Source of the DNA: Opitutales bacterium
Lineage (GTDB): Bacteria; Verrucomicrobiota; Verrucomicrobiia; Opitutales; UBA953
Direction: 5' to 3'
DNA: 64,000 nt
Assembly (NCBI GenBank): GCA_964203605.1
Contig: CAXNMQ010000007.1
Span: forward strand, 5,342-69,341
Numbering within the stretch: position 1 is the stretch's first letter; each line of letters opens with the position of its first letter. A program made the position numbers and the translations under genes. The notes beneath the pieces were generated by a model. It saw nothing but the letters and a program-made list of their open reading frames with translations. It was not told the DNA's origin and did not search any database. Positions 9,040 through 63,719 of the stretch are shown piece by piece.

Positions 9040-9202
9040 CTTCTGATGGGACAGGGGCGGGGCGGAGGGGGTTCCGCTTAATGAGGGAGAATGAAGTGGC
9101 CTTGGCGATTGGGTCAATCGTGTCGCAATGTCCTTTTGGACGCCATCGGTGTCCGTTTCCGCCTGGGATTGCCTGTCGCTACGGCTGGCCTAGGGTCCAG
9201 GC

Positions 9203-10357
9203 ATGCCTTCGACCGCCCGCCGTCTCGCCGGTTTCACCGAATCCGTCATCCGCGGGATGACCCGCCTAGCCAACCAACACGGGGCCATCAACCTCTCCCA
9301 GGGCTTTCCAGACTTCGATCCGCCCGAGGCGCTGCTCGCCGCCTTGGAGCGCGCCACCCGCGGCCCGCATCACCAGTATGCCGTCACCTGGGGCGCCCCG
9401 CGCTTCCGGCAGGCGCTCGCCGCGAAGATCAATCGCTTCAGCGGCCTGGCCATCGACCCGGACCAGCACCTCGTGGTCACCTGCGGCAGCACCGAAGCGA
9501 TGATGGTCGCGATGATGACCGCCTGCAATCCGGGCGACAAGGTCATCGTCTTCTCCCCGTTCTACGAGAACTACGCGGCCGACGCCATCCTCTCGGGCGC
9601 CGAACCGATCTACGTCCCGCTACGGGCGCCGGACTTTCAATTCGACCCTGACGAGCTCGCGAAGGCCTTCGCCCAGAAGCCCAAGGCGATCATCGTCTGC
9701 AATCCTTCCAACCCTTGCGGCAAGGTGTTCACGCGCGACGAGCTGATGACGATCCTGCGGCTGGCCGAGGAGCATGACGCCTTCGTCATCACCGATGAGC
9801 CGTATGAGCACATCGTCTACGCGCCGAACACGCATGTGTATTTCGCCGCGTTGCCCGGCGCCTTCGAACGTACCATCACCTGCAACTCGCTTTCGAAGAC
9901 GTATTCCATCACCGGCTGGCGCCTCGGCTATGTCCAGGCCGCCCCGCACGTCATCGCGCAGGCCCGGAAGGTGCACGACTTCCTGACCGTCGGGGCCGCC
10001 GCGCCGTTGCAGGAGGCCGCGGTGGCGGGTTTGGAATTACCCGATTCCTATTACGCCGGACTCGGCCAGCTCTACGCCGCCAAGCGAACGCTATTCACGT
10101 CAATCTTGGCTAAGACGGGATTGAAATTCACCGAACCGCAGGGCGCGTATTATTCGCTGCTCGATATTTCGCCGCTGGGTTTCAAGACCGACACCGAAGC
10201 CGCCGAATGGCTGATCAAGGAGATCGGCGTCGCCGGCGTGCCCGGGTCATCGTTCTTCCGCGAACCCGAGCACCGCTACCTCCGTTTCCACTTCGCGAAG
10301 AAAGAAGACACCCTGCGCGCCGCAGGGGAGAAGTTGGGGAAGCTGAGTAAGGGCTAG
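9203..10357 (+). CDS. class I/II pyridoxal-phosphate aminotransferase (YbdL / kynurenine-aminotransferase-like)
   Basis: 384-aa ORF with ATG at 9203. Blocks: INLSQGFPDFDPP, SPFYENY, NPSNPCGKVF, SLSKTYSITGWRLGY (PLP lysine context), RFHFAK. Confidence 0.9.
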   Translation: MPSTARRLAGFTESVIRGMTRLANQHGAINLSQGFPDFDPPEALLAALERATRGPHHQYAVTWGAPRFRQALAAKINRFSGLAIDPDQHLVVTCGSTEAMMVAMMTACNPGDKVIVFSPFYENYAADAILSGAEPIYVPLRAPDFQFDPDELAKAFAQKPKAIIVCNPSNPCGKVFTRDELMTILRLAEEHDAFVITDEPYEHIVYAPNTHVYFAALPGAFERTITCNSLSKTYSITGWRLGYVQAAPHVIAQARKVHDFLTVGAAAPLQEAAVAGLELPDSYYAGLGQLYAAKRTLFTSILAKTGLKFTEPQGAYYSLLDISPLGFKTDTEAAEWLIKEIGVAGVPGSSFFREPEHRYLRFHFAKKEDTLRAAGEKLGKLSKG

Positions 10358-10430
10358 GGCCGGGGGCAGGGCTAGGGATAGAGCCTGCCATTATTACCTG
10401 GCCCAAGCCCTGGCCCAAGCCCTGTCCCTC
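10351..10430. repeat. G3-tract arm / C3-tract arm imperfect palindrome between convergent genes
   Basis: GGGCTAGGGCCGGGGGCAGGGCTAGGGA ... CTGGCCCAAGCC CTGGCCCAAGCC CTGTCCCTC. The first unit contains the aminotransferase TAG stop. The G-arm is near-identical to the reverse complement of 44431-44459. Confidence 0.75.
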
Positions 10431-10445
10431 GGTTGGCGCCCTGCG

Positions 10446-11876
10446 CTAACCGACGATCTTCTTATACGGCTCGCCTTCGTTCTGCGTCGGGCGTTCCGGG
10501 CGGCCTTTGTAACGATAAGTCAGGCCCATATTGTCGATGCCGAGCAGCCAGAGGATGGTCGCGTGGAGGTCGTGGACGTGGAGAGGGTTCTCGACGGCGC
10601 GCAGGCCGAGGTCGTCGGTGCTGCCGATGGTCTGGCCGCCTTTGACGCCGCCGCCAGCCATCCACATCGTGAAGCCGGTGGGGTTGTGGTCGCGACCGTC
10701 GCCTTTCTCGGACATCGGGGTGCGGCCGAATTCGCCGCCCCAGACGACGAGCGTGTCTTCAAGCATGCCGCGGGCCTTGAGGTCCTTGATCAGCCCAGCG
10801 ACCGGCTTATCCATCGAGGCACAGAGGCCAGAGTGGTTCGATTCAATCTTCGCATGCGCATCCCATTTGGAACCGGCGCCGTGGTAGATTTGCACGAAGC
10901 GGACGCCTTGTTCGACCATGCGGCGGGCGAGCAGGCAGAGGCGGCCCATGCCTTCGGTGGTCTTGTCGTCGAGTCCGTAGAGCGTGCGCGTGGCTTCCGT
11001 CTCGCCGGTGAGGTCGACCACGCCAGGCGCTTCGGCCTGCATGCGTGCGGCCATCTCGTAGCTGGCTAGGCGGGCACCAAGTTCAGTGCGGTCGGGGTAA
11101 CGGGCGGCGAAATCCTTGTTCACGCTATTGATCAGCTTAAGCTTCGACTTCTGCAGGTCCGCGGTGACGGCCTCAGGCGTGTTAAGATTTGGGATCGGCT
11201 CGGAGCCGCCGGAGATACGCACGCCTTGGTAGACTGCGGGCATGAAGCCGGCGCCCCAATTGCGCGGGCCGTTGATGACGGTGTTCTGGTTGTCCTGCAT
11301 CACGATGAACGAGGGCAGGTTGTTGTTCTCGGAGCCGATGCCGTAATTGATCCACGAGCCGAGCGAGGGCTTCCCTGCGAGGATGGAGCCGGTGTTCATC
11401 TGGCAGACGCCAGCGGAGTGGTTGATGCCGTCGGCCTTGCAGGAACGGATGACCGCGAGGTCGTCGGAGCAGGACGCGATGTGCGGGATCCAGTCCGAGA
11501 ACCATTGGCCCGACTGGCCGTGCTGCTTCCATTCGCGCTTCGAGGCGAGCAGGGGCGACTTTGATTCGCCCATCGCCGTGATGACGGAGCCGAAGCTGTC
11601 GGGAAGGCGCTGTCCGGCCAGCTTGTTGAGCAGCGGCTTTGGGTCGTAGAGGTCCATCTGCGACGGACCGCCTTCCATGAAGAGGAAGATCACGCGCTTC
11701 GCGCGCGGCTTGATGAGCCCGACGCCAGGCTGCAGGGGCGTGCCGGCGGCGGGGACAGTGATATCCTTGGCAAGCAGGTCGCTGAAGGCCATGGCGCCGA
11801 GGCCGAGGCCGGCGCTAAAGAGGAAGTCGCGACGGGAGGAAGTCGCTTCGACGCGATGGCAGCGTGGATCGTTCAT
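10446..11876 (-). CDS. DUF1501 domain protein (sulfatase-fold, twin-arginine signal)
   Basis: 476-aa ORF with ATG at 11876 overlapping the stop of the upstream gene (ATGA). SSRRDFLFSAGLGLGAMAF TAT-like signal; MEGGPSQMDLYDPKP, WDAHA, GGEFGRTPM...GRDHNP. Confidence 0.9.
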   Translation of the reverse strand: MNDPRCHRVEATSSRRDFLFSAGLGLGAMAFSDLLAKDITVPAAGTPLQPGVGLIKPRAKRVIFLFMEGGPSQMDLYDPKPLLNKLAGQRLPDSFGSVITAMGESKSPLLASKREWKQHGQSGQWFSDWIPHIASCSDDLAVIRSCKADGINHSAGVCQMNTGSILAGKPSLGSWINYGIGSENNNLPSFIVMQDNQNTVINGPRNWGAGFMPAVYQGVRISGGSEPIPNLNTPEAVTADLQKSKLKLINSVNKDFAARYPDRTELGARLASYEMAARMQAEAPGVVDLTGETEATRTLYGLDDKTTEGMGRLCLLARRMVEQGVRFVQIYHGAGSKWDAHAKIESNHSGLCASMDKPVAGLIKDLKARGMLEDTLVVWGGEFGRTPMSEKGDGRDHNPTGFTMWMAGGGVKGGQTIGSTDDLGLRAVENPLHVHDLHATILWLLGIDNMGLTYRYKGRPERPTQNEGEPYKKIVG

Positions 11877-15096: not shown

Positions 15097-15153
15097 GGGG
15101 TAGGGCTAAATAAGGTCCTTATTAATCAGAGGGCAACTTCCGTCCAATGTTCC

Positions 15154-16187
15154 TCAGTGCCCCGCCTTCTTCCATGAGGGGTAGTCCTTAGCCAGCAAGT
15201 CCCGGGCGTATTCGCCGAACCAGCTGTAGCCGTTGCGACGCTCATGGCCGATCTCGGCCAGCGTGGCCTTGGGGATGCCGTCGCGATCGCACACGTAAGG
15301 GGTGCCGGTCTTGAGGTCGTAGAAGCGGGCCCAGAGGGCGGGGGCCTTGGGGTCCGGGACCATGATAAGGTCCTTGGCGCCTAGAAGGGTCTTCTTGGTC
15401 TCCAGTCGCAGGCCGGTCACCTTGTGCGCTTCAAACCAAGCGACGGCGCCTTCGATGGAGGAACGGATCTCAGGCGTGGGCTTCTCGAGGCTCATGAGCA
15501 GGCGGACGATGCCGACCGACTCGCTGCCGCTGAAGGAGGGGAGCTCGTAGGAGCGCGCCTTGGCTGGCGCGAAGGTCTTCTCGTCGTGCTGGGCACACCA
15601 GACGGTGGGCTTGCCGCCGACGATGATCTGGCATTTCAGGATGCAGGCGATGCCGAGGTCGAACGCCTTTAGGCAGGCCGCGCGCGTTTTGGGTTCGAGG
15701 AACGTGTAGGTCTTTTCCGTGGCGACTTCGCGGACGAACTGCAGGATGCGTACCATCGCGCCGTCGTTGAAGGTGATGCGGTCGTAGTAGCCTTTGCGCA
15801 GCGGGAAGAACTGCGGCCAGCCACCGTTCGCGTATTGCGCGGAGAGCACGTACGTCAGTCCGCGGTCGAAAGACTTGCGGTAGGTCGCGTCCTGGGTCGC
15901 GTTGACCATGCGCGCCATGAAGCGCAGCTCATCGACGGTGCCCTTGTTGTCGAACGTAGGCTGCAGTTTCGCCCGGTCGCCCTCATAGGCCTTGCTGATG
16001 GTGTCGGTGTTCTTCGGCCAGCCGCCGGCGTCGGTCTGGAAACTGAGGATGATGGCCGCGACCTGCTTTGCCTCGGCGGAGGCGAACCAGCTGTCCGGTT
16101 TATTGAGAAAGCGGCGGGCGCTTTCGTCCGCCGCGAGCAAGCGGACTAAGGGTGAGGCACGCGAGGAAGAGCAGGGCGGGGCGCATG
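15154..16187 (-). pseudogene. pectate lyase, PelA/Pel-15E (PL10-like) family; possible frame break between the signal peptide and the mature domain
   Basis: ORF 15154..16140 (track start is TTG) carries SFQTDAGGWPKNTD, YANGGWPQFFPL, NDGAMV and similar blocks. A plausible signal peptide MRPALLFLACLTLSPLA starts at ATG 16187 in another frame. The 5' extension is uncertain; the enzyme body is confident. Confidence 0.75.
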
Positions 16188-16193
16188 GAATTG

Positions 16194-16250
16194 CAGGGAC
16201 AGGGACAGGGACAGGGGCAGGGACAGGCGTAGGATTAGGGGGAGGGCGGA
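16194..16250. repeat. G3-tract hexamer array (CAGGGA x4 with variants, then TTAGGGGGAGGG), potential G-quadruplex/i-motif
   Basis: cAGGGAcAGGGAcAGGGAcAGGGGcAGGGAcAGGcgtaggaTTAGGGGGAGGGcgg read directly. Lies in the divergent spacer between pectate lyase (-) and maf (+). Confidence 0.85.
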
Positions 16251-16295
16251 AGGAGTAAATGAAGGAAAGCGTGGAGGGCTGTTGCGGTTGTCTTA

Positions 16296-17821: not shown

Positions 17822-17871
17822 TCGCCCTCGCCTACGCTTGAAGTCGGGCTGGGTCCGCCTAACTTCACGGC

Positions 17872-21084: not shown

Positions 21085-21088
21085 ACCC

Positions 21089-21484
21089 ATGCACCCGCTC
21101 ATCCAACAGTATTACCAGGCTTTCAACTCCGGCGACCGTGAGGCGCTGCTCGCACTCCTGCATCCCGACATCGTCCACGAGATCAACGAAGGCGGCGTCG
21201 AGGTCGGCATCCCCGCCTTCCGCGCTTTCCTCGGTCGCATGGACCGTTCCTACCGCGAGCAGGTGGAGGACTTAGTCGTCTTCGCCGGTCCAGACGCCGG
21301 CCGCGCTGCTGCCGAATTCTACATCCGTGGCGAATATCTTAAGACCGACGAAGGCCTCCCGCCCGCCACCGGACAGAAGTATCATCTGCGCGTCGGCGCC
21401 TTCTTTGAGGTCAAGGACGGCAAGGTTGCCCGCGTTTCGAATTACTATAACCTTGGCGCTTGGATGCGGATGGTCGGCGCCTGA
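21089..21484 (+). CDS. SnoaL-like / NTF2-fold protein
   Basis: C-terminal 131 aa of the 405-aa ORF 20267..21484, starting at ATG 21089: MHPLIQQYYQAFNSGDREALLALLHPDIVHE...KVARVSNYYNLGAWMRMVG. Upstream of that the ORF is out-of-frame read-through of the nitrilase gene. Confidence 0.8.
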   Translation: MHPLIQQYYQAFNSGDREALLALLHPDIVHEINEGGVEVGIPAFRAFLGRMDRSYREQVEDLVVFAGPDAGRAAAEFYIRGEYLKTDEGLPPATGQKYHLRVGAFFEVKDGKVARVSNYYNLGAWMRMVGA

Positions 21485-21649
21485 GAGGGGGTGCCCCTGT
21501 CCCGTCCCCTTTCCGGACGACATTTCTTGGTTTGTTCACGCCGTCATCGCCTCCGGGTCGGAGGATAAAGGGGGAGGCGGGCGCATTGCAGTTTGCCTCG
21601 CTTCGGCGGGGCGACTTATTTCCGGGACGACGGCAGCCCCGCCGCCCCC

Positions 21650-22630: not shown

Positions 22631-23190
22631 GGAAATTCTTCACCCTGCTCTGGCTGCTCTTCCCCGTCGGGGTGGTGTATTATCATTTCAACGAAGGCCA
22701 GGCCCAGATGGCTCGCGAGAAAGCCCGGGATCATCTCGTCGCGATCCGCGAGCTTGAGCGCGCGAAGGAGCCCGATTGGCCGACCGTCGTCGAGGAATAC
22801 GATAAGCTCGCCGCCGAACTGCCCCAAGACGAACGCCCGTCCGTCCGTCATCAGATCCGCCTCGCGAAGGCCAAGGCGAAGATCGAGATGCTCGACGTCG
22901 CCGGCGCGATCGCCGACTTGGCCCAGTTACTCAAGGAGTCGGCGGCGGTCGACGGTGAGGACGGTTCGACGACCCGCGCGATCCGTGAGACACTCGGTAA
23001 GGCCTACTTCTACGCGACCTCCTTGCTCAAGGCCAACGGGGCTACCGAGGACGAATGGCGTCCCTACGCCGAACGCACCCGTCAGGTGTTCCGCTACCTC
23101 GCCGAACACCAGGACCCCGCGGCCCTTGCCGACTACGAGAAGCGCGTCGAAGCGGAATTCACCCGCTCCGTCCGCCAGAATAACTTATGA
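22627..23190 (+). CDS. hypothetical membrane-anchored helical (TPR-like?) protein, BatC-position
   Basis: ATG at 22627 overlaps the upstream stop (ATGA). MRKFFTLLWLLFPVGVVYYHF TM helix followed by an about 160-aa helical, charged region. Confidence 0.7.
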   Translation: MRKFFTLLWLLFPVGVVYYHFNEGQAQMAREKARDHLVAIRELERAKEPDWPTVVEEYDKLAAELPQDERPSVRHQIRLAKAKAKIEMLDVAGAIADLAQLLKESAAVDGEDGSTTRAIRETLGKAYFYATSLLKANGATEDEWRPYAERTRQVFRYLAEHQDPAALADYEKRVEAEFTRSVRQNNL

Positions 23191-23945
23191 AGACCCACCT
23201 TCTCCTTTGCGCCATCGGCGCCTTTGCCTTCGCCCAGGAAGCGCCCGCTCCGTCCGCGGTCGAAGGCGTGCGCGGCGTCCGCCAGGAAGGCTCCGGCAAG
23301 GTGAAGGAGATTGATCCCGCTGCGAAGAACGTCGCCCCTACCACTGTGCAGGGCGTCGATAAGGTCGACGGCGTGAAGGCGCCCGGTGGGGCCAAGGCCG
23401 TGAAACAAACGCCGCCGCCGACTTCCGTCACCGAAGGTGCGAAGCCTGTCGCGGGCGCCGGCACGAAAGCCACGCCGCCTCCGCCCTCCCCGAAGGGCGT
23501 CGAGGGCGTTGAGGGCGTGAAGCCCCCTGAAGGCGTCAAGGGTGCCGGTACCAAGGGGACGCCGCCTCCGCCTGCCCCGAAGGGCGTTGAAGGCGTTAAA
23601 GGCATGAAACCGCCGGAAGCCGTTAAAGGCGCGGGCACGAAGGCTACGCCACCGCCTCCGCCCGCCAAGGGACTCGCGGGCGTCAAGGGCGTGAAGCCGC
23701 CCGAAGGCGTGAAGCCCGCCGCTGGCGGCATCAAGCCCGTCGAAGGCGTCACCGGCATCGGCGCCGGCAAGCAGCAGAATCTCGAAGCCGCCCTCCAGGT
23801 CCAACCCGCTGGTAAGCCCGAGCCAAAGAAGGCGAAGGCCGCCGCCGCGCTCCTCGGCGGACCCGAGCCCAAGGGCAAGCCCACCAAGCAGGACGACCGC
23901 AAGCTCTTCGAGGAGATCAAGAAGATCCCCGACAACGGTTCCTGA
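23187..23945 (+). CDS. secreted Lys/Pro/Gly/Val-rich repeat protein
   Basis: 252-aa ORF with ATG at 23187 overlapping the upstream stop (ATGA). Signal peptide MKTHLLLCAIGAFAFAQE. Three tandem 29-aa units GAGTK(A/G)TPPPP.PKG(V/L).GV.G.KPPE.VK. Confidence 0.75.
   Translation: MKTHLLLCAIGAFAFAQEAPAPSAVEGVRGVRQEGSGKVKEIDPAAKNVAPTTVQGVDKVDGVKAPGGAKAVKQTPPPTSVTEGAKPVAGAGTKATPPPPSPKGVEGVEGVKPPEGVKGAGTKGTPPPPAPKGVEGVKGMKPPEAVKGAGTKATPPPPPAKGLAGVKGVKPPEGVKPAAGGIKPVEGVTGIGAGKQQNLEAALQVQPAGKPEPKKAKAAAALLGGPEPKGKPTKQDDRKLFEEIKKIPDNGS
23454..23714 (+). repeat. 3 x 87-nt in-frame tandem repeat inside the repeat-protein gene
   Basis: Protein-level units GAGTKATPPPPSPKGVEGVEGVKPPEGVK / GAGTKGTPPPPAPKGVEGVKGMKPPEAVK / GAGTKATPPPPPAKGLAGVKGVKPPEGVK, read directly from ORF 23187..23945. 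Confidence 0.85.
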
Positions 23946-27527: not shown

Positions 27528-27553
27528 CCTACCCCTATCCCTAACCCAACCCC
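27528..27553 (+). repeat. C3-tract motif (cctaCCCCtatCCCtaaCCCaaCCCC) 8 nt upstream of the MoxR start codon
   Basis: Read directly from the sequence. The track ORF start (TTG 27516) translates this motif as PDVPTPIPNPTPL, which is unlikely to be coding. Confidence 0.7.
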
Positions 27554-27560
27554 TTTAAAA

Positions 27561-34200: not shown

Positions 34201-34599
34201 TGAGGCGCGGAGGTCACGAAGTCGCCGCCGGAGACGACCTGCCAGGTCGAGGTGTTGATCACCCACTTGGAGACGAAGCCGCCAGCTGCGCCGTGGGCGC
34301 GGGCGGTGCCCTGGAGGACGCACAGTGGTGATAGTCTGAGTGGCGCCGATTTCGTGGTTGGCGAGGACGGTCATCGTGCCGTCGCCGTTCGAGTAAGCAC
34401 CGAGACCGTCAGGGATACCGGCCATCAGGTAGCCGCCGATGCCGTCGCCCACCGTCAGGAGAGAGGTGGCGGACCAGCCCGGTGAGGTCGGAGTGAGGTA
34501 AGAGGTCTGGGAGCTAGACGGGCCCTGAATCACGCTCTGTGCGGAGAGCGAGACGGTGGTAGCCGCGGCGACGAGGAACAAACGTGCGATGTTTTTCAT
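31239..34599 (-). pseudogene. autotransporter (signal peptide, DUF839/PhoX-like beta-propeller passenger, PATR repeats, C-terminal beta-barrel) with many frame breaks in the passenger region
   Basis: ATG at 34599 (MKNIARLFLVAAATTVSLSAQS...GIPDGLGAYSNGDGTMTVLANHE). Coding signal then hops between frames through 34320-33000 (ORFs 33750..34262, 33992..34195, 32878..33240 and unlisted pieces). Clean from about 32990 down: GTLTLTGVNTYTGDTNVAKGKLVVNGSL (autotransporter-associated beta-strand repeat) and a beta-barrel ending ...IKANYSFRF. Confidence 0.75.
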
Positions 34600-38061: not shown

Positions 38062-38129
38062 GCGCGGCTATGCCGCGCGGGGTACTGCTGGCACGGTGAA
38101 CTGCTGCGAAGCAGCGCGCTGAGCGCGGC

Positions 38130-40703: not shown

Positions 40704-40863
40704 GGGGTCGTGGACGGACGGAATCGAGGGGTATGGTTAACGGACGGGGAAAACCCTAGTCAAAGCCCAATTGGGAGGGTTAGGTGGGCCTGCGGGACGG
40801 GGAGGGCTCAGGGGCGGATAATTCGGGTGTGCAGGGCTAAGGAAATGGGTTTATCTCCCAACC

Positions 40864-42474
40864 ATGCGCACCCCCGCACTCCTGGTTGCCTGCCTCATGG
40901 CAGCGACGCTTCCTGCTGCCCCTCAGAAGGTCGAGATGGCTGGTTACCTCCTCGTCCCGACCGAGCGCGTGCCGGAGACCTACGACGCCGGCTTCTCGAT
41001 CTACGCCGCCGCTTGGCCGCTGTTGAATCAATACCCTGGGCATCGCTTCCAGACCGGCCTCTTCGGCACTTGGATGCATCCGCAGTATCCTAAGGATGCG
41101 AAACCCAAGGATCTTTATAACGACATCGAAGGCGGCCTCGGCTGGTGGCGTGACACGCACTTCCCGACAACGACGCCGAAGTTCATCATGGGTGGCGTCG
41201 GCGTGAATTTCTACGACATCGCCAACGGACCGGGCTACGGACGCGGCACGTGGGAAGATCCGCGCGGGCTCTACGGCGTGGCTCAGCTGACGCCTTGGCT
41301 GCTCTTCCCGCTCGACGGCCTCAACTTGAAGCAGGGCGTCAATGGCGAGCTCTTCGGCTACGGTTACCTGCCGATGCCGTTCGCCCAGCCGAAGACGAAG
41401 ACTGAAGGCAAAGACGTGCCCACGGGCGACAACTGCTGGACGCTCTTCCTGAACTCGTCGAACTTCAAGGGCCCGGTCTGTTTCTTCACGCCGAACTTCT
41501 GGTCGCGCGCGGCCCTCCGTAATCCGGCCGTCGCCGGCCAGATGCTCGATTCCCGTGGCTCCGATCCGAACAAGCATTTCCAGATGGAGACCCAGTATGT
41601 GCCCGCCGCGCAGGCCACGGACGACAAAGGTGCGACCTATGCGCGCGTCGCGCCGACATCCTTTCCGGTCGGCGCCGATGGCACCACTGTCGTGCTGCAT
41701 CGGCTGACGTCGTATGACCGTCGGGCGATGTACGACGGCGTGAAGGCTTGGTTCGACGGCGGCCCGGTGGCGAGCGGCGCGGTCAATCCCGCCGGCGCGT
41801 TCATCCAGAACTTCAAGAACAACGGCGGCTCGACCTGGAGCATCTACAAGCAGGGCACCAAGCGGGAGGCCAAGCCAGGGCTCGCTTGGAAATCCTTCGC
41901 CACGCCGCATTCCCCGGATCCGATGACCTACGGCTACAAGTGGAACGACGAAGTCGTCTCGCGCACGACGCCCGGTCTCGTGACGCTGCCGCAGTATTAT
42001 CGCTTCGGCACGGGCGGGAAGAACGGGCAGTGGACGCCAGTGAAGCCCGCCGAGGTACCGGCCGCGACTGGCCTGGCGCAGATGAGTTTCGAGCCCCCGG
42101 TGGAAAAGCCGCAGTTACCGCGGGAGACCCAGCCCGGCGAAAAGACGACCTGGAAGATCCCGGGTCCAAAGGCCGGACCGTTCCAGGCCTTCCTCGGCGA
42201 CGGCAGCGTCGTCACTTATTATTGGTACCGCTTCGCTGACCAGCCCGCCATCCTCAACGCTGACCTGACGTCTGCTGAACGCGAAGCCCTACAGGTCAAG
42301 GTCGAGAAGCTCCACCGCTCATGGACCAAGGATCGCGACTACCTCGCGCCTCCAACTGTCGGCAAGCTGGCCGCGCTCGATCCGGCGCAGGTTTTGACTC
42401 CGCCCAAGGGACTCGAGATCGGCTACGTCCCTATCGCCACGCGACAGGAATTGGCCGTCCCGGCGAAGAAGTAA
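40864..42474 (+). CDS. hypothetical secreted protein (536 aa)
   Basis: ATG at 40864. Signal peptide [24 protein letters not shown]-rich with no recognisable catalytic motif. Confidence 0.65.
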
Positions 42475-42480
42475 GCCTGC

Positions 42481-42636
42481 TCAGCGACGGTCGAGATCCT
42501 TGGTCTCGACCGGTTCGACGTGCGCGAGGTGCTCGGGGTTCTTCTTGCCCGTGAGTACCTTGATGAGGCACCAGACGAAGAGGATGGTCACCGCGCCCAC
42601 CGAGATGAGCATGAAGAGAAGTCCGGCGGTTGTCAT
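42481..42636 (-). CDS. small single-TM protein (51 aa) immediately downstream of the SNF transporter; possible MetS-like small subunit
   Basis: Hand translation (too short for the ORF track): [54 protein letters not shown] at 42636 lies 18 nt after the transporter's corrected stop. Confidence 0.5.
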
Positions 42637-42654
42637 GGTCGTAAGGTGGTAGGA

Positions 42655-44254
42655 TTAGCGGGCGTCCCAGCGTTTGCCGGCTCGATGAATCATTAGCGCC
42701 GAGAAGGCCGCGAAGAGCAGGAGGAAGAAGGCCGTCAGGCGGGCGACGCCGCTGGCCGGGTGGCCGGGGCCGCCGATGAGGTCGAGGATCGGGTCGGTCG
42801 GGGTGAAGACGGGCGAGCTGAACGAGAGATTCCAGCCCGCGACGTTCTTGAGCACGAACATCAGGAAGATGGCGGTGAGGAACGTCGGCGAAATCCAGCG
42901 GAGGATGAACTTGAAGATCCGGGGAATACGGATGTCGGCGCCGTGATGGGCTTCCGTTCCAGCCGCGTTCGGTGCCGAAGGCGAAGTTGAAGACATAGAT
43001 CAGGATGGTCCCTTGCAGGAAGATGCCGATGTCGCCGATCCAGAAGTCGACCGTCGAGAGCGCCTTCAGGCCTTCGCTGAAGTAGACGACGAGCGTGCAG
43101 CCGACTGCGGTGATCAGGCCGAGCAGCGCCACGGAGCCGGGGCGATCCAGTCCGAGGCCTTCTTCTAGGAAGGCGATGCCAGGCTGGAGCATCGAAAGCG
43201 AGGAGGTGATGGCGGCGATGAAGAGCAGGGTGAAGAAGAGTCCGCCGAAGAGATGTCCGTAGGGCATGCCGGCGAAGACCTGCGGCAGGACGTTGAAGCC
43301 GAGGGCGAAGGTGCCGCCCGCGACGGCGGAGGCGCCGAGGAAGGCGAAAGCGGCGGGGACGGTGATCATGCCGCCGAGGCCGACTTCGCAGAACTCGTTG
43401 GCGGCGGTAGCGGTCAGGCCGCTGAGGACGACGTCATCGTTCTTCTTGAGGTAGCTGGCGTAGGTGATGATGACGCCGAAGCCGACGGAGAGCGTGAAGA
43501 AGACCTGCGAGGCGGCCTTGAGCCAGACGGCGGGATTCGAGAGGCCGTTGGAGATGTCGTGCGGATTCCACATGTAGCCGAGGCCATTCCAGACGCTGAG
43601 CTCGGGCTTCGTCGGGTCGGGCGTACCGAGGGTCAGCACGCGGACCAACAGGATGAGGGCGATGGCGATCAGGAGTGGCATACCCCAGTTACAGATGAAC
43701 TCGATGCCCTTGGAGAGGCCGCGGTAGATGATGACGAAGTTCAGGATGAACACGCCGATGAAGAACAGGAACGGCGTACCGAGTCCGAGGACGGCGCCGT
43801 CGGCCTTGAGGCCGGTGAACGCGGCGAAGGCGTCGGCGTAGGTCTTCGGGTCTTTGCCGAGGTCGAGTCCACCGGTGAAGCTGCTCCAGGCATAACCCAG
43901 GCACCACGACTCGATGACGACGTAATAGAAGTAGACGCCGACCGGGATGATGAAGCCGAGGAGGCCGACGTATTTGCCCCAAGGCTTCCGGATGATGGCG
44001 TGGAAGATGCCCGGGGAGGAGTTATACCCCTGCGTGCCGCCGAAACGTCCGAGGGTCCACTCGACCCAGCAGATCGGCAGGCCGACGATCAGGAGCGAGA
44101 TGAAGTAGGCGATCAGGAAGGCGCCGCCCCCGGTCTCCTTATCGGCGACGAGGCCGGGGAAGCGGAGGAAGTTACCTAGTCCGACGGCACTGCCGGCGAC
44201 GGCCATGATGACGCCTAATTTAGAGCTCCAGCCGTCAGGTTGCTTGGTCGTCAT
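42655..44254 (-). pseudogene. sodium:neurotransmitter symporter (SNF/NSS) family transporter, one +1 frame break at about 42950-42958
   Basis: ATG at 44254. [19 protein letters not shown]...[32 protein letters not shown] 42431..44254 leaves frame after [10 protein letters not shown], and the true C-terminus [26 protein letters not shown]... is in ORF 42655..42996. Confidence 0.85.
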
Positions 44255-44324
44255 GCTGTTGGTGGGTGAGGGTTTACTATGCAGGGCAGGGTAGAGTGCA
44301 ATCGTTCAGAGCAGGCAGGGCCTG

Positions 44325-44459
44325 CTCAGGGCTAGAGCCAGGGCTAGGGCTAGGGCTAGGGTTCGGGCTGATGCCGGATCTCAGTGATCGATGAATGAGA
44401 CTGCTACTTCGCCCGTATTTCTTCGGAAAACTAGCCCTAGCCCCGGCCCTAGCCCTGAG
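44325..44459. repeat. inverted pair of G3-tract repeats (GGGCTAGGG units) around a 69-nt spacer
   Basis: Left arm ctcaGGGctagagccaGGGctaGGGctaGGGctaGGG (44325-44361). Right arm ctagCCCtagCCCCggCCCtagCCCtgag (44431-44459); its reverse complement matches the left arm with about 2 mismatches over about 29 nt. Confidence 0.8.
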
Positions 44460-44516
44460 TCGGGGTCATTCCCTATTCTTCTCGCCCTTTCCAATTCCTC
44501 TACTCACTTTGCGCTA

Positions 44517-45834
44517 ATGCCGTTTGCATCCTTAGGCCTCGACGCCTCTATCCTCAAAGCCGTGGCCGACCAGGGCTACACCGAACCGACGCCGATCCAG
44601 AAGGCTTCCATTCCGGTCATCATCGAGGGCAAGGACGTCATCGGCGTGGCCCAGACGGGCACCGGCAAGACCGCCGCTTTCACCCTCCCTCTGCTCACCA
44701 AGCTGGTCCGGACGCAAGAACAGCACCCACCAGGGCCGCGTCCGCTGCCTGATCCTGGCCCCGACCCGCGAGCTCGTCGTCCAGATCGCTGAGAACGTCG
44801 CCGCTTATTCCCGTTATGCCGGTGCGACCGTCGCCACCTGTTACGGCGGTGTCTCCGAACGCCCGCAGATCGCCGCTCTCCGTCGTGGCTGTGACTTCCT
44901 CATCGCCACCCCGGGTCGTCTCCTCGACCTCGGCGGCCAGGGTCATGGTGACTTCTCCGCTGTCGAGTACCTCGTCCTCGACGAAGCCGACCGCATGCTG
45001 GACATGGGCTTCCTCCCCGCGATCAACACCATCGTCCGCGCGCTGCCCAAGGAACGCCAGACCCTGATGTTCTCGGCCACGCTCTCCCGCGAGATCGAGA
45101 CCCTCACGAAGCAGTATCAGCGCGACCCTCAGATGATTGAGGTCGGCCGTCGTACTTCCCCGGCCGAGACCGTCACTCAGCTGCTCTACGAGTGCCCGGG
45201 TGCCCTCAAGCAGGTCATGCTGCACCACCTCCTCAAGGACGAAGCCCTCAAGTGCGTGCTCGTCTTTGCGCGGACCAAACATGGTGCCGATCGCGTCTGC
45301 CGCAAACTCCAGGGCGAAGACATCAGCTGCGCCGCCATCCACGCCAACCGCTCGCAGAGCCAGCGTCAGCGCGCCCTGCAGGCCTTCAAGAACGGAGAGG
45401 TTCGCGTGCTCGTCGCGACCGACATCGCCTCGCGCGGTATCGATGTCGACGGCATCTCCCACGTCTTCAACTTCGACTTCCCTGACCAGCTCGAAGACTA
45501 CGTCCACCGTATCGGTCGTACTGGCCGTGCGCTCTCCACCGGCACCGCCATCACCTTCGTCACCCGCGAAGACCTTGGCGAACTCCGCCGCCTCGAGCGT
45601 ATCGTCGGCAAGCACCTCCATTGCGGCAAGCTGCAGGGCTTCGACTACACTCAGCAGGCTCCGCCCCGCACCCCGGAAGATTTCCAGCGTCACCAGGATC
45701 CCCGCGCCGGCTCGCACAACAGCGAACGCGAAGGCCGCCCCCAGGGTGGTCGTCACGGCGGCTTCCGCGCCTCCAAGGGTAATTACCGTCCCTTCGGTCG
45801 TCCGGGCACCCGCCGCAGCGGCGGACCTAAGTAA
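44517..45834 (+). pseudogene. DEAD-box ATP-dependent RNA helicase (RhlE-like), one +1 frame break between about 44700 and 44745
   Basis: ATG at 44517 ([60 protein letters not shown]). Continues in the next frame with [73 protein letters not shown]. Confidence 0.9.
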
Positions 45835-45842
45835 GGATAAAA

Positions 45843-45874
45843 GAGGCTCGGAGGCTCAGAGGCCCAGAGGCTCA
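45843..45874 (+). repeat. 4 x 8-nt tandem repeat GAGGCYCR
   Basis: GAGGCTCG GAGGCTCA GAGGCCCA GAGGCTCA, read directly, between the helicase stop and its terminator. Confidence 0.8.
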
Positions 45875-45879
45875 GAAAA

Positions 45880-46056
45880 TCAGCCCGGCGACCCCGGGCT
45901 TTTTTGTGCCTTACCGCGTGGAGTGCCCTTGCGGCAGGCGTCGCTACAGAAGCGGACCTCGTCCCAGCAGCGGGCCCACTTCTTGCGCCAGAGGAAGGGG
46001 CGCTGGCAGGTCGGGCAGACTTTGGCCGGAAGGTTTTCCTTTTTGACGCCGCGCAT
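45880..46056 (-). CDS. DUF2256 zinc-ribbon-like small protein
   Basis: ORF 45880..46065 (TTG); ATG at 46056: [43 protein letters not shown]. The CxxC...WRKKW...C..xC pattern is typical of DUF2256, a family often found next to photolyase-related genes. Confidence 0.75.
45882..45906 (+). terminator. rho-independent terminator of the DEAD-box helicase gene
   Basis: AGCCCGG-cgacc-CCGGGCT followed by TTTTTGT. Overlaps the last codons of the convergent DUF2256 ORF. Confidence 0.75.
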
Positions 46057-48093: not shown

Positions 48094-48151
48094 AGGTAGG
48101 GTTGAGCGCCCTCGCTCAACCGCGGCTGACCAAGGGTGGTCAGCCCTACCT
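48094..48151. other. compact three-way-junction-like palindromic element between convergent genes (outer stem AGGTAG/CTACCT enclosing two 8-bp hairpins)
   Basis: AGGTAGg-GTTGAGCG-ccct-CGCTCAAC-cgc-GGCTGACC-aagggt-GGTCAGCC-CTACCT, all complementarity checked by hand. Spans exactly from the photolyase stop to the sulfatase stop. Confidence 0.7.
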
Positions 48152-49674: not shown

Positions 49675-49733
49675 GCCGATTTATTAGGGTTAGGCCTTCG
49701 TTATGTCGAGAAACCAAGGGGGTGGGTTTGTCG

Positions 49734-49780: not shown

Positions 49781-49857
<77 letters not shown>

Positions 49858-52312: not shown

Positions 52313-53313
52313 TTGGCGGAGGAGATGAGGTGCGCTTTGATGAAGTCGCTATCCGTGGCGTGGACGATGTTCGGGGCGCCCGGGTAGACGAGTTCGCAGG
52401 GGGCCTTGAGCGCGTCGCAGTGTTCCTTGAGTTTCACGCCGAAGTTGGCCGTATGCGTAGGGTCCTTCTCGTCTTTGCCGAGGTTAGGCGGGGTGCTGTA
52501 GAAAAGGCCGACGGGTGGGTCGTCGCGGGAGACGAGTTCGTAGGGCGAGTACTCCTTGATCCAGGGGAGGATGCGTTCGCGCTCGGCGTAGAACATGTCG
52601 AAGGACGAAAGTTTCTGCTTCGCGTCCCAGACGATGCCGAAGGCGTGGGCACCGTATTTGCTATTGGGCGTCCAATCGCGCATCTGCTTCGGGTCGAGGG
52701 TGGTCTGGGCGCCGGAGACCGCGGCGCAGGTCACGCGGGTGGATTCGCGGGCGATGGGGTCAGCGCTGTTCGGATCGGCGAGGTCATCGTGGAACGCGAT
52801 CCAAAGGCTGGTACAGGCGCCGGCAGAGCCGCCCGCCAGGGCGACCTTGGTCTTATCGAGGTTCCATTCCTTGGCCTTGCTGCGCGTGAACTGGAGGGCG
52901 CGGGCGCAATCGACCATCGGTCCTTTCACGGGTGGCACGAGGCCGTCGTTCATCGAGTCCCGGATGTTGCGGTATTCCACCGAAACCACCGAGATGCCGG
53001 CGTCGAGAGCGGGCTTGAGCATGCTGCGTACGACCGATCGGTCGCCGCCGGTCCAACCGCCGCCGTGGATGTAGAAGAGTAAGGGCGTAGGCTTATCGGA
53101 CTTCGCGCGCCAGAAGTAGATCCGCTGCATCCGGTGCGATCCGTAGGAGACGTTCTCGTCGGGTTCGAGCGGCAGTGGGTATTTACGAAACTCAGGGTCG
53201 ATGACTTTTGCCGGTACGGCGGCCTTGGCGGGAGCTTTGGTCGGCGCGTCGGCAGCGAGCAGGGAGGCGGCGCCTAGGGTAAGGGCAACGACAGAAGCGA
53301 GCAGGGGGTTCAT
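52309..53313 (-). CDS. alpha/beta-hydrolase, HGGG-type esterase/lipase, secreted
   Basis: 334-aa ORF with ATG at 53313. Signal peptide; oxyanion HGGGWTGGD; nucleophile LAGGSAGAC. Confidence 0.82.
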   Translation of the reverse strand: MNPLLASVVALTLGAASLLAADAPTKAPAKAAVPAKVIDPEFRKYPLPLEPDENVSYGSHRMQRIYFWRAKSDKPTPLLFYIHGGGWTGGDRSVVRSMLKPALDAGISVVSVEYRNIRDSMNDGLVPPVKGPMVDCARALQFTRSKAKEWNLDKTKVALAGGSAGACTSLWIAFHDDLADPNSADPIARESTRVTCAAVSGAQTTLDPKQMRDWTPNSKYGAHAFGIVWDAKQKLSSFDMFYAERERILPWIKEYSPYELVSRDDPPVGLFYSTPPNLGKDEKDPTHTANFGVKLKEHCDALKAPCELVYPGAPNIVHATDSDFIKAHLISSAK

Positions 53314-53809: not shown

Positions 53810-53830
53810 AGGAAATGGGAAGAGCGGCAA

Positions 53831-54566: not shown

Positions 54567-54578
54567 GTCAAAGTGGCC

Positions 54579-54608: not shown

Positions 54609-54636
54609 TAGCGGTGCGCTCGGCCATCTGTCATCT

Positions 54637-55674: not shown

Positions 55675-55730
55675 AAGCAAGGGCTGCACGATGACAGCCC
55701 TTGGGGAGAAAACCACCTGATTTCTCAGGC

Positions 55731-57158: not shown

Positions 57159-57165
57159 AGTGATC

Positions 57166-58746: not shown

Positions 58747-58798
58747 GCCTATCTAACAGCCAGACCGATGAGGAGTTGCGAAAAAACCGCCCAAGGGG

Positions 58799-61473: not shown

Positions 61474-61541
61474 GGGTGGGTAAGGGGTAGCCCTCGCCCT
61501 GATAAAAGGCAATAAGACCTACTCGAGATCCAGTGAAAACC

Positions 61542-63632
61542 TCAGAGTCCCTGCAACCAGCGGAGGAAGCTGCCTTCCTCGGAGACCATGATGCGGAGTA
61601 AATCGCTCCGTTCGTCAGTCCAGGGGAGGACGCGGGCCGAGAACTCCACGTGCTCCTTTGTCACGTCGAGCAGGAGCGGCTGCTTCAGCAAGGCTTGATT
61701 ACGCGTCATGATGATCCAGTCCGAGCCATAGAAGCCAGCGTCCTCGTAGGCCGTGTCGTTGTCGTCGATGGTAATAGCCGGGAAGCCGATCTTCTCTGCG
61801 ATGCGGTAGACCACGGGGTGGAGGTCGAGGTAGCGGTTCGAGACGTGGATCACGATGGCACCGTCAGGCTTGAGGTGGCGCTGGTAGGTCGCGAAGGCCT
61901 CCAGCGTGAGCAGGTGGACCGGAATCGCGTCGCTGCTGAAGGCGTCGAGGATGATCATGTCGTACTGCTGATCAGGTTCCCCTTCCATGCGGAGGCGAGC
62001 ATCGCCCATGACGAGTTCCGTCTTTGCCTTGGAGTCTTTCAGGTAGGTGAACGTGCTCGTCGCGAGCCGCGCCACGTCGTCATTGATTTCGTAGAAGCGG
62101 AACGTGTCGCCCTGGCGTCCCCAGGCGGCGAGGGTGCCGGAGCCGAGGCCGACGGCGCCGACGCGGCGTCCGCCTTCGGGCTTGATGGTGCGCAGAAGTC
62201 GCCCGACGCCGCTGGTCGAGGTGTAGTAACTGCTGGGGTTGGTGCGTTTCTCGGGGTCGACGTATTGGAGTCCGTGGATCGTCGCGCCGTGCTGCAGCGT
62301 GAGATGATGCAGTTCGGGGTTACCGGCATCGTTCTCGATGACCTTGAGCACACCGTAGAAACCGCGGGTGACCGAGAGGGCGCCCCGCAAGGACGTCGCG
62401 GCGACGTCGTACAGGCCGTAACCGAAGGCCGGGAGGAGCAGGAGTAGGACGGCCCAGCCCCAGCGGCCGCGGCCCTTCTGCAGGAAGCTCGTAGCGTCTT
62501 GGCGGAGGACGCCCAGCACGAGCGCCGCCGTGAGGAAGAGCGCGAGGTGGAGTTCAAAGTAATCCAGGAAGATGAACGGGGCCACGAGGGCGACGAAGAG
62601 TCCGCCCGCCGCCCCGCCGGCGGAGATAGAAAGGTAATAGCTGGTCAGGCGGCTGGCCCCTGGTCGCAGGCGGAAGACCTCGCCGTGGCAGACCATGCAC
62701 GCGACGAACATCGTGCCGAGGTAAAGCGTGGCGAGCGGCGTAATGTTCGGGTGTGATTCCGCCTGATTGAGGTTATACAGCACCATGCCGAGCAGCGCGG
62801 CGAGGAGGGGCAACCAGACGGCGCGGTGATACCAGCGCGGGCTGTCGAAGCTGATGATGAACGAGAGCAGGTATAGGCTGAGCGGCAGGACCCAGAGGAA
62901 GGGCACGACGGCGATGTCTTGGCAGAGCTTATTGGTGATCGCGAGGAGTAGCATCACGCCACATGCGGGCAGGGCGAACCAGAGCAGCTTACGGCTCATC
63001 GAGGGAGCTTCTTCCGCGTCGTCCGCGATGGCCGCTTTCGTATCGGCGCCGGCGCTCTTCCAGACCTTGTAACCGCACCAGCCGGCGAGGCCGGCGTAGA
63101 GGGCGAGGCCGATGGACCACCAGTTGGCCTGAGCCTGACGGGCGAGCTGAGGTTCGAGCACGAACGGATATGCCAGGAGCGCGAGGAGGGAGCCGATGTT
63201 TGAGAGGGCGTAGAGACGATAGGGCGAGACGCCGGGGTTCGCCTTGCTGAACCAAGCCTGCAAGAGCGGCCCGGTAGCCGAGAGCACGAGATAGGGCAGG
63301 CCGAGGCAGGCCAAGAGTAGCAGTAGGATGTGTCCAGCGGCATTGGAACCGTCGGTCGGCTTCCATTGGTCGCCTGGGGTGATCGGGAGCAGGGCCACCG
63401 CGAGCGCCAAGAGGCAGAGGTGGGTGATGACCTGACGGCGAGGGGTGAGGCGGCTGATGCTGAAGTGGGCGTAGGCGTAGCCGCCGAGGAGCAGGACCTG
63501 GAAGAACAGCATGCAGGTCGTCCAGACGGCAGGCCCGCCGCCGAACCAGGGGAGGATGAAGCGCGCGATCAGCGGCTGGACGAGGAAGAGCAGGCAGGCT
63601 CCCCAGAAGATGGTCAGGCTGAAAGCGAACAT
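61542..63632 (-). CDS. fused polytopic membrane domain + spermidine-synthase-like (class I methyltransferase fold) protein
   Basis: 696-aa ORF with ATG at 63632. About 8-10 TM helices in the first 420 aa, then VGAVGLGSGTLAAW...YDMIILDAFSSDAIPVHLLT (aminopropyltransferase-like motifs). Confidence 0.8.
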   Translation of the reverse strand: MFAFSLTIFWGACLLFLVQPLIARFILPWFGGGPAVWTTCMLFFQVLLLGGYAYAHFSISRLTPRRQVITHLCLLALAVALLPITPGDQWKPTDGSNAAGHILLLLLACLGLPYLVLSATGPLLQAWFSKANPGVSPYRLYALSNIGSLLALLAYPFVLEPQLARQAQANWWSIGLALYAGLAGWCGYKVWKSAGADTKAAIADDAEEAPSMSRKLLWFALPACGVMLLLAITNKLCQDIAVVPFLWVLPLSLYLLSFIISFDSPRWYHRAVWLPLLAALLGMVLYNLNQAESHPNITPLATLYLGTMFVACMVCHGEVFRLRPGASRLTSYYLSISAGGAAGGLFVALVAPFIFLDYFELHLALFLTAALVLGVLRQDATSFLQKGRGRWGWAVLLLLLPAFGYGLYDVAATSLRGALSVTRGFYGVLKVIENDAGNPELHHLTLQHGATIHGLQYVDPEKRTNPSSYYTSTSGVGRLLRTIKPEGGRRVGAVGLGSGTLAAWGRQGDTFRFYEINDDVARLATSTFTYLKDSKAKTELVMGDARLRMEGEPDQQYDMIILDAFSSDAIPVHLLTLEAFATYQRHLKPDGAIVIHVSNRYLDLHPVVYRIAEKIGFPAITIDDNDTAYEDAGFYGSDWIIMTRNQALLKQPLLLDVTKEHVEFSARVLPWTDERSDLLRIMVSEEGSFLRWLQGL

Positions 63633-63719
63633 GGCGGGGTACGTGTTTGGAACCCCGCTGTGAGGCGAAGGTTAGGGCAAAGAAGGGCTAGGTCCTCGCC
63701 TCCCTCATGGCAACCCCGT

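Follow-up and report, generated by a model that had tools for sequence, protein, structure and literature searches.

The C-rich tracts that precede many genes in a 64,000-nucleotide stretch of an Opitutales genome (assembly GCA_964203605.1, contig CAXNMQ010000007.1, positions 5,342 to 69,341 of the forward strand; 64% GC; hereafter the window) are probably not copies of one element but the C-rich face of three lineage-specific features, namely a translation-initiation region, polar tandem arrays and repetitive extragenic palindromes of the GTAG type (GTAG-type REPs). An earlier reading of the bare sequence, hereafter the original prediction, had listed 14 gene starts with short C-runs nearby and had grouped these runs as a single recurrent "C3-tract motif" that might act in transcription, in translation initiation or through unusual nucleic acid structures. 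The translational and terminator roles proposed below are deduced from features that could be observed directly, i.e. composition, polarity, hairpin potential and variability.

The closest relatives of the AspS protein encoded in the window (38907-40703, minus strand) were found in metagenome-assembled genomes of freshwater Opitutae/Opitutales (Verrucomicrobiota), and a planctomycete origin, at which the gene labels of the original prediction hinted, was rejected on this basis. Two sets of 20-kb loci, cited individually by L numbers, were used for comparison: the clade set comprises 32 loci with an AspS identity of 84-99% and a GC content of 48-72%, and the distant Opitutales set comprises 48 loci with an AspS identity of 66-78%. 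Metagenome contigs encoding an identical AspS matched the window at 97-99% DNA identity and thus represent strains of its species. Gene starts were assigned with a composition-based gene caller of our own, which is blind to upstream sequence and also gave most of the starts listed in the original prediction.

Composition upstream of genes

The claim that the sense strand upstream of genes is C-rich was confirmed. Among the 28 window genes whose upstream gap measures 60 nt or more, the region from -60 to -1 contained 47 C3 runs versus 19 G3 runs and 17 C-run pairs versus a single G-run pair, and C clearly exceeded G between -40 and -1 at 12 of the 14 listed sites, the exceptions being the autotransporter gene (C/G of 0.28/0.28) and the Ni/Co transporter gene (0.40/0.38). 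The C3 runs themselves, however, were not more frequent than composition predicts, as mononucleotide shuffles of the same 60-nt stretches yielded 50.0 +/- 5.3 runs (z = -0.6) and 6.1 sequences with a C-run pair, compared with 6 observed. Because the number of C3 runs equals the shuffle value, we conclude that the scattered tracts reflect a local C-rich, G-poor composition rather than a discrete motif, and the C3-tract motif was dropped as a unit of analysis. What far exceeds chance are arrays with a period of six nucleotides, the sequence CC-ATG at gene starts and a mirror-image enrichment of G behind stop codons. A mild excess of C is a general property of coding strands in this lineage (skew of about +0.10; C 0.56 and G 0.32 at third codon positions, all window genes and relatives L012-L041), which explains the positive GC skew of the window wherever genes lie on the minus strand.

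The tract coordinates given in the original prediction held with two corrections. The pectate-lyase ATG is located at 16186 instead of 16187 and does not share the frame of the downstream open reading frame (ORF), and the tract assigned to the first Bat-like gene (21494-21514) lies immediately 3' of the stop codon that closes the upstream ORF (21089-21484), where it contains the mini-palindrome GGGGGTGCCCC; it is a 3' element and not promoter-proximal.

Sequence context of gene starts

The initiation-region statistics were obtained from 224 to 338 genes of the window and its close relatives, the number being set by the filter applied. From about -40 onwards C increased and G decreased, and G was depleted from about -25 to +30, a span that includes codons 2-11. 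Genes with an upstream gap carried C in 54% of cases at both -1 and -2; in high-GC clade members the values were 66% at -1 and 59% at -2, and relatives with 48-59% GC had 55% C at -2 and -4 and only 5-13% G over most of -12 to -1. The preferred context thus consists of C at -1, -2 and -4, with 29-31% G at -3 and 49% A at +4. Internal ATGs used as controls, both in-frame and out-of-frame, lacked this C-rich, G-poor pattern. In line with this, CC-ATG was found at 34% of window starts versus 9.8% of all window ATGs (p = 5e-6) and at 33-34% of clade starts versus 10% (p = 8e-33), and CCC-ATG at 17% of window starts versus 2.5% of all ATGs. The bias extends into the coding sequence and affects each of the three codon positions: the C-over-G skew is +0.37 in codons 2-11 versus +0.10 in gene bodies. 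Operon-internal genes share the C-rich start context (56% C at -1, 51% at -2), which argues for a translational rather than a transcriptional cause; the statement that internal genes lack the motif is therefore correct for the arrays but not for the start context.

Shine-Dalgarno (SD)-like cores (GGAG, GAGG or AGGA) were detected between -18 and -5 in merely 5-6% of genes, overall fewer than in upstream control windows (9-13% in the high-GC set, 2-11% in the low-GC set), and no purine peak was present at the expected SD position in clade genes. The C-rich tracts have the same sense as the anti-SD and hence do not qualify as SD sequences, the anti-SD (CCUCC) being taken from SD-scarce Verrucomicrobia (PMC10783764). 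Predicted folding was weaker at starts than in their surroundings: the minimum free energy from -30 to +29 was -13.1 kcal/mol versus -16.3 kcal/mol for -90 to -31 (both with a GC content of 0.63, p = 6e-6) and -19.4 kcal/mol within genes, i.e. 6 kcal/mol stronger there than at the start. By these sequence statistics, the hallmarks of an SD-less initiation region were found, namely a lack of SD signal across the genes sampled, reduced structure and a biased start context, and the suggestion of translation initiation without SD, one of several made in the original prediction, gains compositional backing. For the start-proximal tracts, the candidate function with the best support is initiation independent of SD on an unstructured leader, and the tracts within about 30 nt of the start codon (ATGs 15096, 34599, 36832, 40703, 46459 and 61473, MoxR and pectate lyase) are assigned to such a predicted SD-less, G-depleted initiation region.

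Among individual starts, the tract CCCTACCCC (15097-15106, minus strand) directly abuts ATG 15096 and exemplifies the CCC-ATG context, which recurs at ATGs 21650, 34599, 36832, 40703, 46459 and 61473. The leader of the PSCyt gene (ATG 9039) carries the C-tract cluster CCCCCTCCGCCCCGCCCCTGTCCC (9048-9075, minus strand).

Tandem arrays and their polarity

We defined a period-6 array as four or more C3 runs that recur exactly every 6 nt (CCCNNNCCCNNNCCCNNNCCC). The window contains 10 matches at 6 places, all intergenic, versus 0.04 expected. Four of the six places coincide with sites of the original prediction (pectate lyase, MoxR, SNF, DEAD), and the two it had missed, 10351-10377 (minus strand) and 10402-10428 (plus strand), are flanked by the 3' ends of convergent genes. 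All 27 period-6 arrays of the clade are intergenic, and none was found in the distant Opitutales. In the roughly 520 kb of clade sequence, a broader survey with Tandem Repeats Finder yielded 100 intergenic arrays with a period of 5 or more, at a density of 1.73 per kb in intergenic versus 0.52 per kb in coding DNA. Periods range from 6 to 16 nt, as in (CCCTAG)n and (CCGCTAA)n, and the unit families include GGGCTA, GGCGGTT, GGTGGCA, AGAGGCTC, ATACTCC, TCCCCTA, CCCGACTCTGT and GGGGACAC. The same families were encountered again at unrelated loci, as is characteristic of short tandemly repeated repetitive (STRR)-like arrays. On upstream sense strands, the hexamers CTAACC, CCCTAG and TACCCC are enriched 10-14 times.

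The arrays are strongly polar, and the original prediction had caught one half of this pattern: arrays nearest to 5' ends are C-rich on the sense strand of the adjacent gene, and those nearest to 3' ends are G-rich. Counting sense-C-rich to sense-G-rich arrays in the clade, we obtained 36:3 at 5' ends and 6:39 at 3' ends (Fisher p = 9e-14). The pattern was retained after collapsing orthologous flanking genes (12:2 and 2:15, p = 5e-5), among solo arrays without a complementary partner (21:3 and 5:32) and in the window alone (5:0 and 0:5, p = 0.008), while the distant Opitutales gave 14:5 and 10:7 (p = 0.48). Read from left to right, intergenic regions are G-rich on the left and C-rich on the right in divergent, convergent and plus-strand tandem arrangements, with minus-strand tandem regions being marginal (p = 0.058); after stop codons, about 60 nt are G-rich before the sequence turns C-rich. 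Inverted array pairs are frequent and fold into long hairpins.

Both the arrays and the C-rich start context are strong in loci with at least 84% AspS identity, at any GC content between 48 and 72%, and weak or absent in more distant Opitutales, which bears out the proposed lineage restriction. For the start context this is a matter of degree, as it is broader than the clade and strongest inside it.

GTAG-type REP elements

The third feature comprises stem-loops tagged by GTAG. The REP head reads GGGTAGGG and its opposite strand CCCTACCC, and the window holds five stem-loops composed of GTAGGG and a 9-10 bp stem (3647-3671, 3824-3849, 3887-3911, 48096-48121 and 48124-48149). The first of these, GTAGGGGCAGCACCACGTGCTGTCC (3647-3671, plus strand), is a single REP located 10 nt after the stop codon of gene 2705-3637. 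The other four form two head-outside dimers whose top strands begin with GTAGGG and end with CCCTAC: one at 3824-3911, consisting of GTAGGGCGGCCATTGCCATGGCCGCC (3824-3849, plus strand) and GTAGGGCGGGCACTGCGTGCCCGCC (3887-3911, minus strand), with a predicted fold of -66 kcal/mol (z -6.0) for 3810-3925, and one at 48096-48149 at the 3' end of the sulfatase gene, consisting of GTAGGGTTGAGCG..CGCTCAACC (plus strand) and GTAGGGCTGACCA..TGGTCAGCC (minus strand). Both REPs of the latter dimer are also found nested within the 10358-10445 intergenic region of other strains.

In intergenic DNA of the clade, 44 GTAG-tagged stem-loops were counted versus 1-5 for control tetranucleotides; 13 of the 44 correspond to the anticodon arm of tRNA-Pro, leaving about 31. 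Their orientation is weakly polar (28:16), and REP polarity was thus rejected as a full explanation of the array pattern. A GTAG tag joined to a short stem-loop with a stem of 5-13 bp, repeated and mostly intergenic, is what defines GTAG-type REPs, and this combination was found for the REPs including the CCCTAC unit, which on this sequence match we regard as the REP head; the definition is not applicable to the CCCTAG or CCCTGT arrays, and neither these nor the heptamer families contain GTAG. In some strains, (GGGGTA)n arrays directly adjoin GTAG REPs, so at least some arrays may derive from REP heads. The view that the C-rich tracts are not a described element is therefore only partly true, since the GTAGGG head of known GTAG-type REPs, read in reverse complement, gives the CCCTACCC unit (PMC3733652). 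Such REPs are reported to be highly enriched in Opitutus terrae, with a predominance of head-outside dimers (PMC3733652).

Array loci and strain variation

The SNF-DEAD intergenic region (44255-44516) contains a 146-nt palindrome. Its left, G-rich arm is a (CCCTAG)n array of about 7 units (44325-44369, minus strand), which is C-rich in the sense of the SNF transporter gene and lies upstream of its ATG at 44254, and its right arm is a (CCCTAG)n array (44431-44459, plus strand) that is C-rich in the sense of the DEAD-box helicase gene, 58-86 nt upstream of ATG 44517. The arms form an inverted repeat of 29 nt with 93% complementarity, and the fold of 44320-44465 was predicted at -84 kcal/mol (z -5.9 and -7.6). 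A small perfect hairpin, GAGCAGGC-AGG-GCCTGCTC (44309-44327), is located beside the palindrome on the SNF side, and the alternative allele has an analogous small hairpin of different sequence. The number of hexamers varies among strains, and at least three palindrome allele classes (hexamer, GCGGTTA heptamer and GGTGGCA) share the same architecture. These classes cross species borders with both leaders conserved (L001, L002, L004, L005, L010, L011, L016, L017, L030), possibly owing to a recombination or insertion hotspot or to an old polymorphism. The conserved leader of the DEAD gene begins only at 44471, where cross-species alignments stop. At the other end of this gene, 8 nt 3' of the stop codon, a (AGAGGCTC)n array (45842-45876, plus strand, sense-G-rich) consists of four tandem AGAGGCTC/GGAGGCTC units containing the SD core GGAGG; orthologous arrays were found in four other species (L011, L012, L016, L017), and a canonical bidirectional terminator hairpin follows at 45882-45900.

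Upstream of aspS, the C-rich, G-poor leader ACCCCTCGATTCCGTCCGTCCACGACCCC-ATG (40704-40733, minus strand) is conserved throughout the clade and is preceded by a promoter-like block (40734-40763, minus strand) made up of TTGACT (40758-40763), 18 nt and TAACCA (40734-40739). Judging by its conservation, this TTGACT-N18-TAACCA block may function as a promoter. Block and 30-nt leader are invariant across the clade, whereas the array further upstream is hypervariable or absent: the degenerate C-tract array of the window (40773-40825, minus strand) is represented in relatives by clean (CCCTAT/CCCTAC/CCCTAG)n arrays, by other sequences or by nothing. Among 10 strains, the upstream 160 nt were 100% identical.

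Two arrays are located directly at gene starts. The CCCCTATCCCTAACCCAACCCC array (27528-27554, plus strand) fills the 48-nt spacer before the MoxR ATG at 27561, and the last 40 nt before this ATG contain only 5% G; it was unchanged in 10 strains apart from the length of an adjacent A-run, and species L016 retains it as CCCCACCCCTATCCCTACCCC. The (CCCTGT)n array at 16194-16227 (minus strand) precedes the pectate-lyase ATG by 10-36 nt on the sense strand, and the L019 orthologue carries a CCGCCAA/CCGCTAA heptamer array in the same place.

In the convergent region 10358-10445, the hexamer array at 10351-10377 (minus strand; G-rich on the plus strand) starts within the TAG that terminates the aminotransferase gene (9203-10357), and the CCCAAG/CCCTGG/CCCTGT array at 10402-10428 (plus strand) is separated by 18 nt from the point where the DUF1501 gene (10446-11876, minus strand) stops. 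They constitute the 5' and 3' arms of one hairpin (-57 and -55 kcal/mol for 10345-10445, z -2.7). Among strains encoding an identical DUF1501 protein the region ranges from 76 to 190 nt, with units gained and lost, (GGGGTA)n/(CCCCTA)n arms and nested small palindromes, and the hairpin at 10429-10453 (TCGGTTGGCGC-CCT-GCGCTAACCGA), which holds the DUF1501 stop codon, is kept in most strains while the adjoining arrays vary. Finally, a sense-G-rich heptamer array (GCTATCC/GCCAACC)n at 3966-3993 (plus strand), which follows the stop codon of gene 4005-5270 (minus strand) at a distance of 12 nt, belongs to the unit family of the alternative SNF-DEAD allele.

Proposed mechanism and alternative explanations

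We propose that 30S subunits load without SD pairing on a G-depleted leader, as they would in Bacteroidia on A-rich ones, and that removal of G, not a lowering of GC, would keep the ribosome landing zone single-stranded in a genome of 64% GC. Arrays and REPs would then be REP/STRR-like dispersed repeats with rapid turnover by unit gain or loss and allele replacement, which may be tolerated, or used as hairpin terminators or insulators lacking a U-tract, only when their orientation keeps G out of leaders; the start-adjacent arrays of MoxR and pectate lyase would themselves act as the unstructured leader. The most likely constraint on array and REP orientation is this exclusion of G from leaders, because G-rich RNA would pair with C-rich start regions. 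Paired arrays are likely to serve as U-tract-less terminators or insulators, and the candidate functions for the arrays in general comprise terminator or insulator hairpins, G-quadruplex (G4) structures, Rho utilization (rut) sites and selfish DNA.

Several observations weigh against this proposal. A weaker preference for C at -1 (59%) was also seen in distant high-GC Opitutales, so the start context may be partly linked to GC content, and a few genes do not have a C-rich start region, such as the Ni/Co transporter gene (35579) and the aminotransferase gene (9203), whose start region 9160-9202 contains G (GGCCTAGGGTCCAGGC-ATG). Several 5' arrays lie 50-90 nt from the ATG and, as for aspS, probably upstream of the core promoter, so that selection on leaders cannot directly explain their polarity. 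Solo G-rich arrays after stop codons gave fold z-scores from -6.7 to +2.4; hairpins were therefore rejected as a shared feature of 3' arrays, and a terminator role of hairpins is not general. On the technical side, the starts are self-called (10 of 13 reference starts were matched on L001), the clade loci are all syntenic around aspS, which limits their independence and was corrected solely by collapsing orthologues, and arrays were placed relative to start and stop codons rather than to the transcript.

The strongest competitor, which we nevertheless hold to be rather less probable, explains arrays and REPs as selfish or neutral repeats, i.e. mobile or slippage-made DNA without a host function, whose polarity stems from head-outside REP dimers with G-run-flanked GTAG heads and from purging of G-rich insertions in leaders. 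The hypervariability of arrays among strains with identical flanking proteins, the replacement of whole alleles by unrelated unit families at one site, the (GGGGTA)n arrays beside GTAG REPs together with the enrichment of these REPs in the clade, and the predominance of head-outside dimers among REPs (PMC3733652) are all in agreement with it. The polarity, however, is equally seen in solo arrays of GTAG-free families (GGTGGCA, AGAGGCTC, CCCGACTCTGT) and in convergent regions, where no leader is at stake, while the REPs themselves are only weakly polar; moreover, array positions are kept across species (MoxR, DEAD 3' end, aspS) even though the units change. Comparison of strain alleles revealed inverted arms, such as a miniature inverted-repeat transposable element would have, but no target-site duplication or empty allele, only replacement and gain or loss of units.

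A regulatory role of G4 or i-motif structures, with G3N3 arrays folding on the template strand upstream of genes and on the RNA or non-template strand downstream to control initiation and termination, would fit the abundance of such sequences but appears unlikely. The window contains 14 canonical G4 motifs versus 5.4 +/- 2.1 expected, 10 of them within the roughly 11% of intergenic sequence and the four within-gene motifs all on the antisense strand; six arrays consist of G3N3 repeated at least four times, and according to surveys, G4 motifs are enriched around the starts and ends of bacterial genes and are distributed asymmetrically between the strands (PMC12581993, PMC12563890). At orthologous positions, however, the G3 hexamers are replaced by arrays without G3 runs that are unable to form three-tetrad G4s (GGCGGTT, GGTGGCA, ATACTCC, AGAGGCTC), which argues against G4 or i-motif formation as a general requirement, and where arms are paired a very stable Watson-Crick hairpin would be favoured. 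The structural part of the original prediction is thus possible in view of the motif counts but weakened by these replacements.

Similar doubt applies to Rho loading, according to which an untranslated transcript entering a gene, in sense at the 5' end or in antisense at the 3' end, would be a good Rho substrate, the arrays acting as rut sites or insulators. The polarity is indeed mirror-symmetric about genes at both ends, solo arrays included, in convergent regions the far C-rich arm is located just before the neighbouring gene, and scans with E. coli-type consensus sequences detected terminators, as well as promoters, at chance level only. The array hairpins are without T-runs and hence are not intrinsic terminators. 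Yet arrays of 20-50 nt are below the typical rut length, the G-arm would sequester the C-arm in paired elements, and C-rich leaders would draw Rho to genuine mRNAs as well. A more inclusive model, which we likewise regard as improbable, merges these ideas into a code marking gene boundaries: polar arrays, C-rich to an entering polymerase and G-rich to a leaving one, would insulate transcription units by hairpin, R-loop or G4 pausing on exit and by Rho loading on entry, and ribosomes would use this C-rich polarity as a Kozak-like landing pad that needs no SD. In that case the arrays, fast-evolving as they are, would be maintained for their function and offer an alternative to the canonical signals found upstream of promoters and at terminators.

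Least probable is the promoter-proximal transcription signal named in the original prediction, be it an UP-like, discriminator or initiator element recognized by RNA polymerase or a lineage-specific sigma factor. It could draw on the aspS and DEAD arrays, which end just upstream of a conserved block and possible core promoter, and on the upstream enrichment of CTAACC, CCCTAG and TACCCC. The arrays, however, lie anywhere between 7 and about 90 nt from the ATG and are less conserved than the rest of the upstream region, being hypervariable beside the invariant block at aspS and DEAD; identical arrays are also present where the 3' ends of convergent genes face each other, and the C-rich context reaches into codons 2-11 and to operon-internal genes. 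Neither the fixed position nor the conservation at orthologous promoters that mark sigma-70 elements was found, and no positional TANNNT or TTGAC peak accompanied the arrays, with the exception of TANNNT in aspS orthologues. A fixed promoter element is thus not supported. We also considered leaderless mRNAs as a general pattern, hinted at by weak T(-12), A(-11) and T(-7) preferences and by the arrangement at the sulfatase gene, and rejected them, the TANNNT peak being confined to aspS orthologues. The sulfatase upstream region (49681-49709) reads TCGACA-N17-TAATAA-N6-ATG and is conserved in relatives; a leaderless or near-leaderless mRNA would result, but this is an isolated case.

Comparison with known systems

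The start context is reminiscent of the eukaryotic Kozak context gccRccAUGG, with which it shares C at -1, -2 and -4 and the elevated G at -3, but it has A and not G at +4, and bacterial initiation proceeds without scanning, so that the resemblance is probably superficial. Bacteroidia use A-richness at this place.

The composite as a whole resembles known kinds of elements, the closest known analogues being SD-independent initiation, GTAG REPs together with REP doublets forming hairpins (REPINs), and cyanobacterial STRR sequences. Verrucomicrobiales are reported to be globally without SD sequences (PMC10798248), and some Verrucomicrobia are listed as SD-scarce although the CCUCC anti-SD is conserved (PMC10783764). 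As in Bacteroidia and Verrucomicrobiales (PMC10798248; PMC10783764), SD-like sequences occur here at or below chance, and a biased, weakly structured initiation region with a preferred start context is found instead; unlike in these reports, which do not single out Opitutales, the bias is C-rich and G-poor with CC at -2/-1. The REPs correspond to GTAG-type REPs/REPINs (Di Nocera et al. 2013, PMC3733652) in having GTAG, a 9-10 bp stem and a 2-3 nt loop, and in being intergenic and often arranged as head-outside dimers that fold into larger hairpins, but differ in that the head lies within G-runs and that they coexist with, and sometimes adjoin, head-like tandem units such as (GGGGTA)n. Like cyanobacterial STRR sequences, for which roles in transcript stability or translational coupling have been proposed, the arrays are intergenic, tandem, hairpin-capable and built of units of about 7 nt (PMC2670836). 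They belong to another phylum, however, and comprise many unit families with periods of 6-16 nt. To our knowledge, neither the polarity with C at 5' and G at 3' ends nor the replacement of alleles at strain level has been described for STRR. Bacterial promoter- and terminator-proximal G4 motifs (PMC12581993; PMC12563890) are comparable in their G3N1-7 x4 pattern, intergenic enrichment near gene starts and ends and asymmetry between template and non-template strands, whereas the G3 arrays described here are interchangeable with non-G4 arrays and mostly have a complementary C-arm nearby. A literature search yielded nothing on Opitutae with G-quadruplexes and no description of these arrays, and a search of the palindromes against Rfam returned no known RNA family, with tRNA-Pro as the sole match.

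The choice of start codons by SD-less bacteria has so far been addressed mainly in Bacteroidia, with Verrucomicrobiales flagged only in 2024. The GC-rich lineage studied here suggests a different solution, in which G is depleted and C enriched around a CC-AUG instead of A being enriched, and the resulting sequence rules could be used for start-site annotation and expression design in Verrucomicrobiota. The polarity of the fast-evolving intergenic repeats, on the other hand, is a clean population-genomic pattern that could reveal the mutual constraints among repeats, transcript ends and leaders. The arrays are in addition strain-level length markers and are likely to cause trouble in assembly and gene calling.

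Gene calls and additional observations

Compared with near-identical strain contigs, frameshifts or fusions were detected in the genes for the DEAD helicase (44517-45834), the PATR autotransporter (31239-34599), the BNR protein (36933-38064), the SNF transporter (42431-44254, fused to a 51-aa ORF) and the pectate lyase (15154-16186). These deviations, which were the reason for building our own gene caller, point to assembly or homopolymer errors or to pseudogenes, and the exact lengths of C- and G-runs in the window should therefore be treated with caution.

Outside the array loci, a tRNA-Pro (49781-49857) was supported by both ARAGORN and Rfam, while a 91-nt tRNA-Thr predicted by ARAGORN on the plus strand (52699-52789) lies inside a minus-strand gene, has no Rfam support and is probably a false positive. 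Within gene 23187-23945, a protein repeat segment rich in Pro, Gly and Lys is encoded by three direct repeats of 87 nt (23350-23750), which contain 9-nt sub-repeats.

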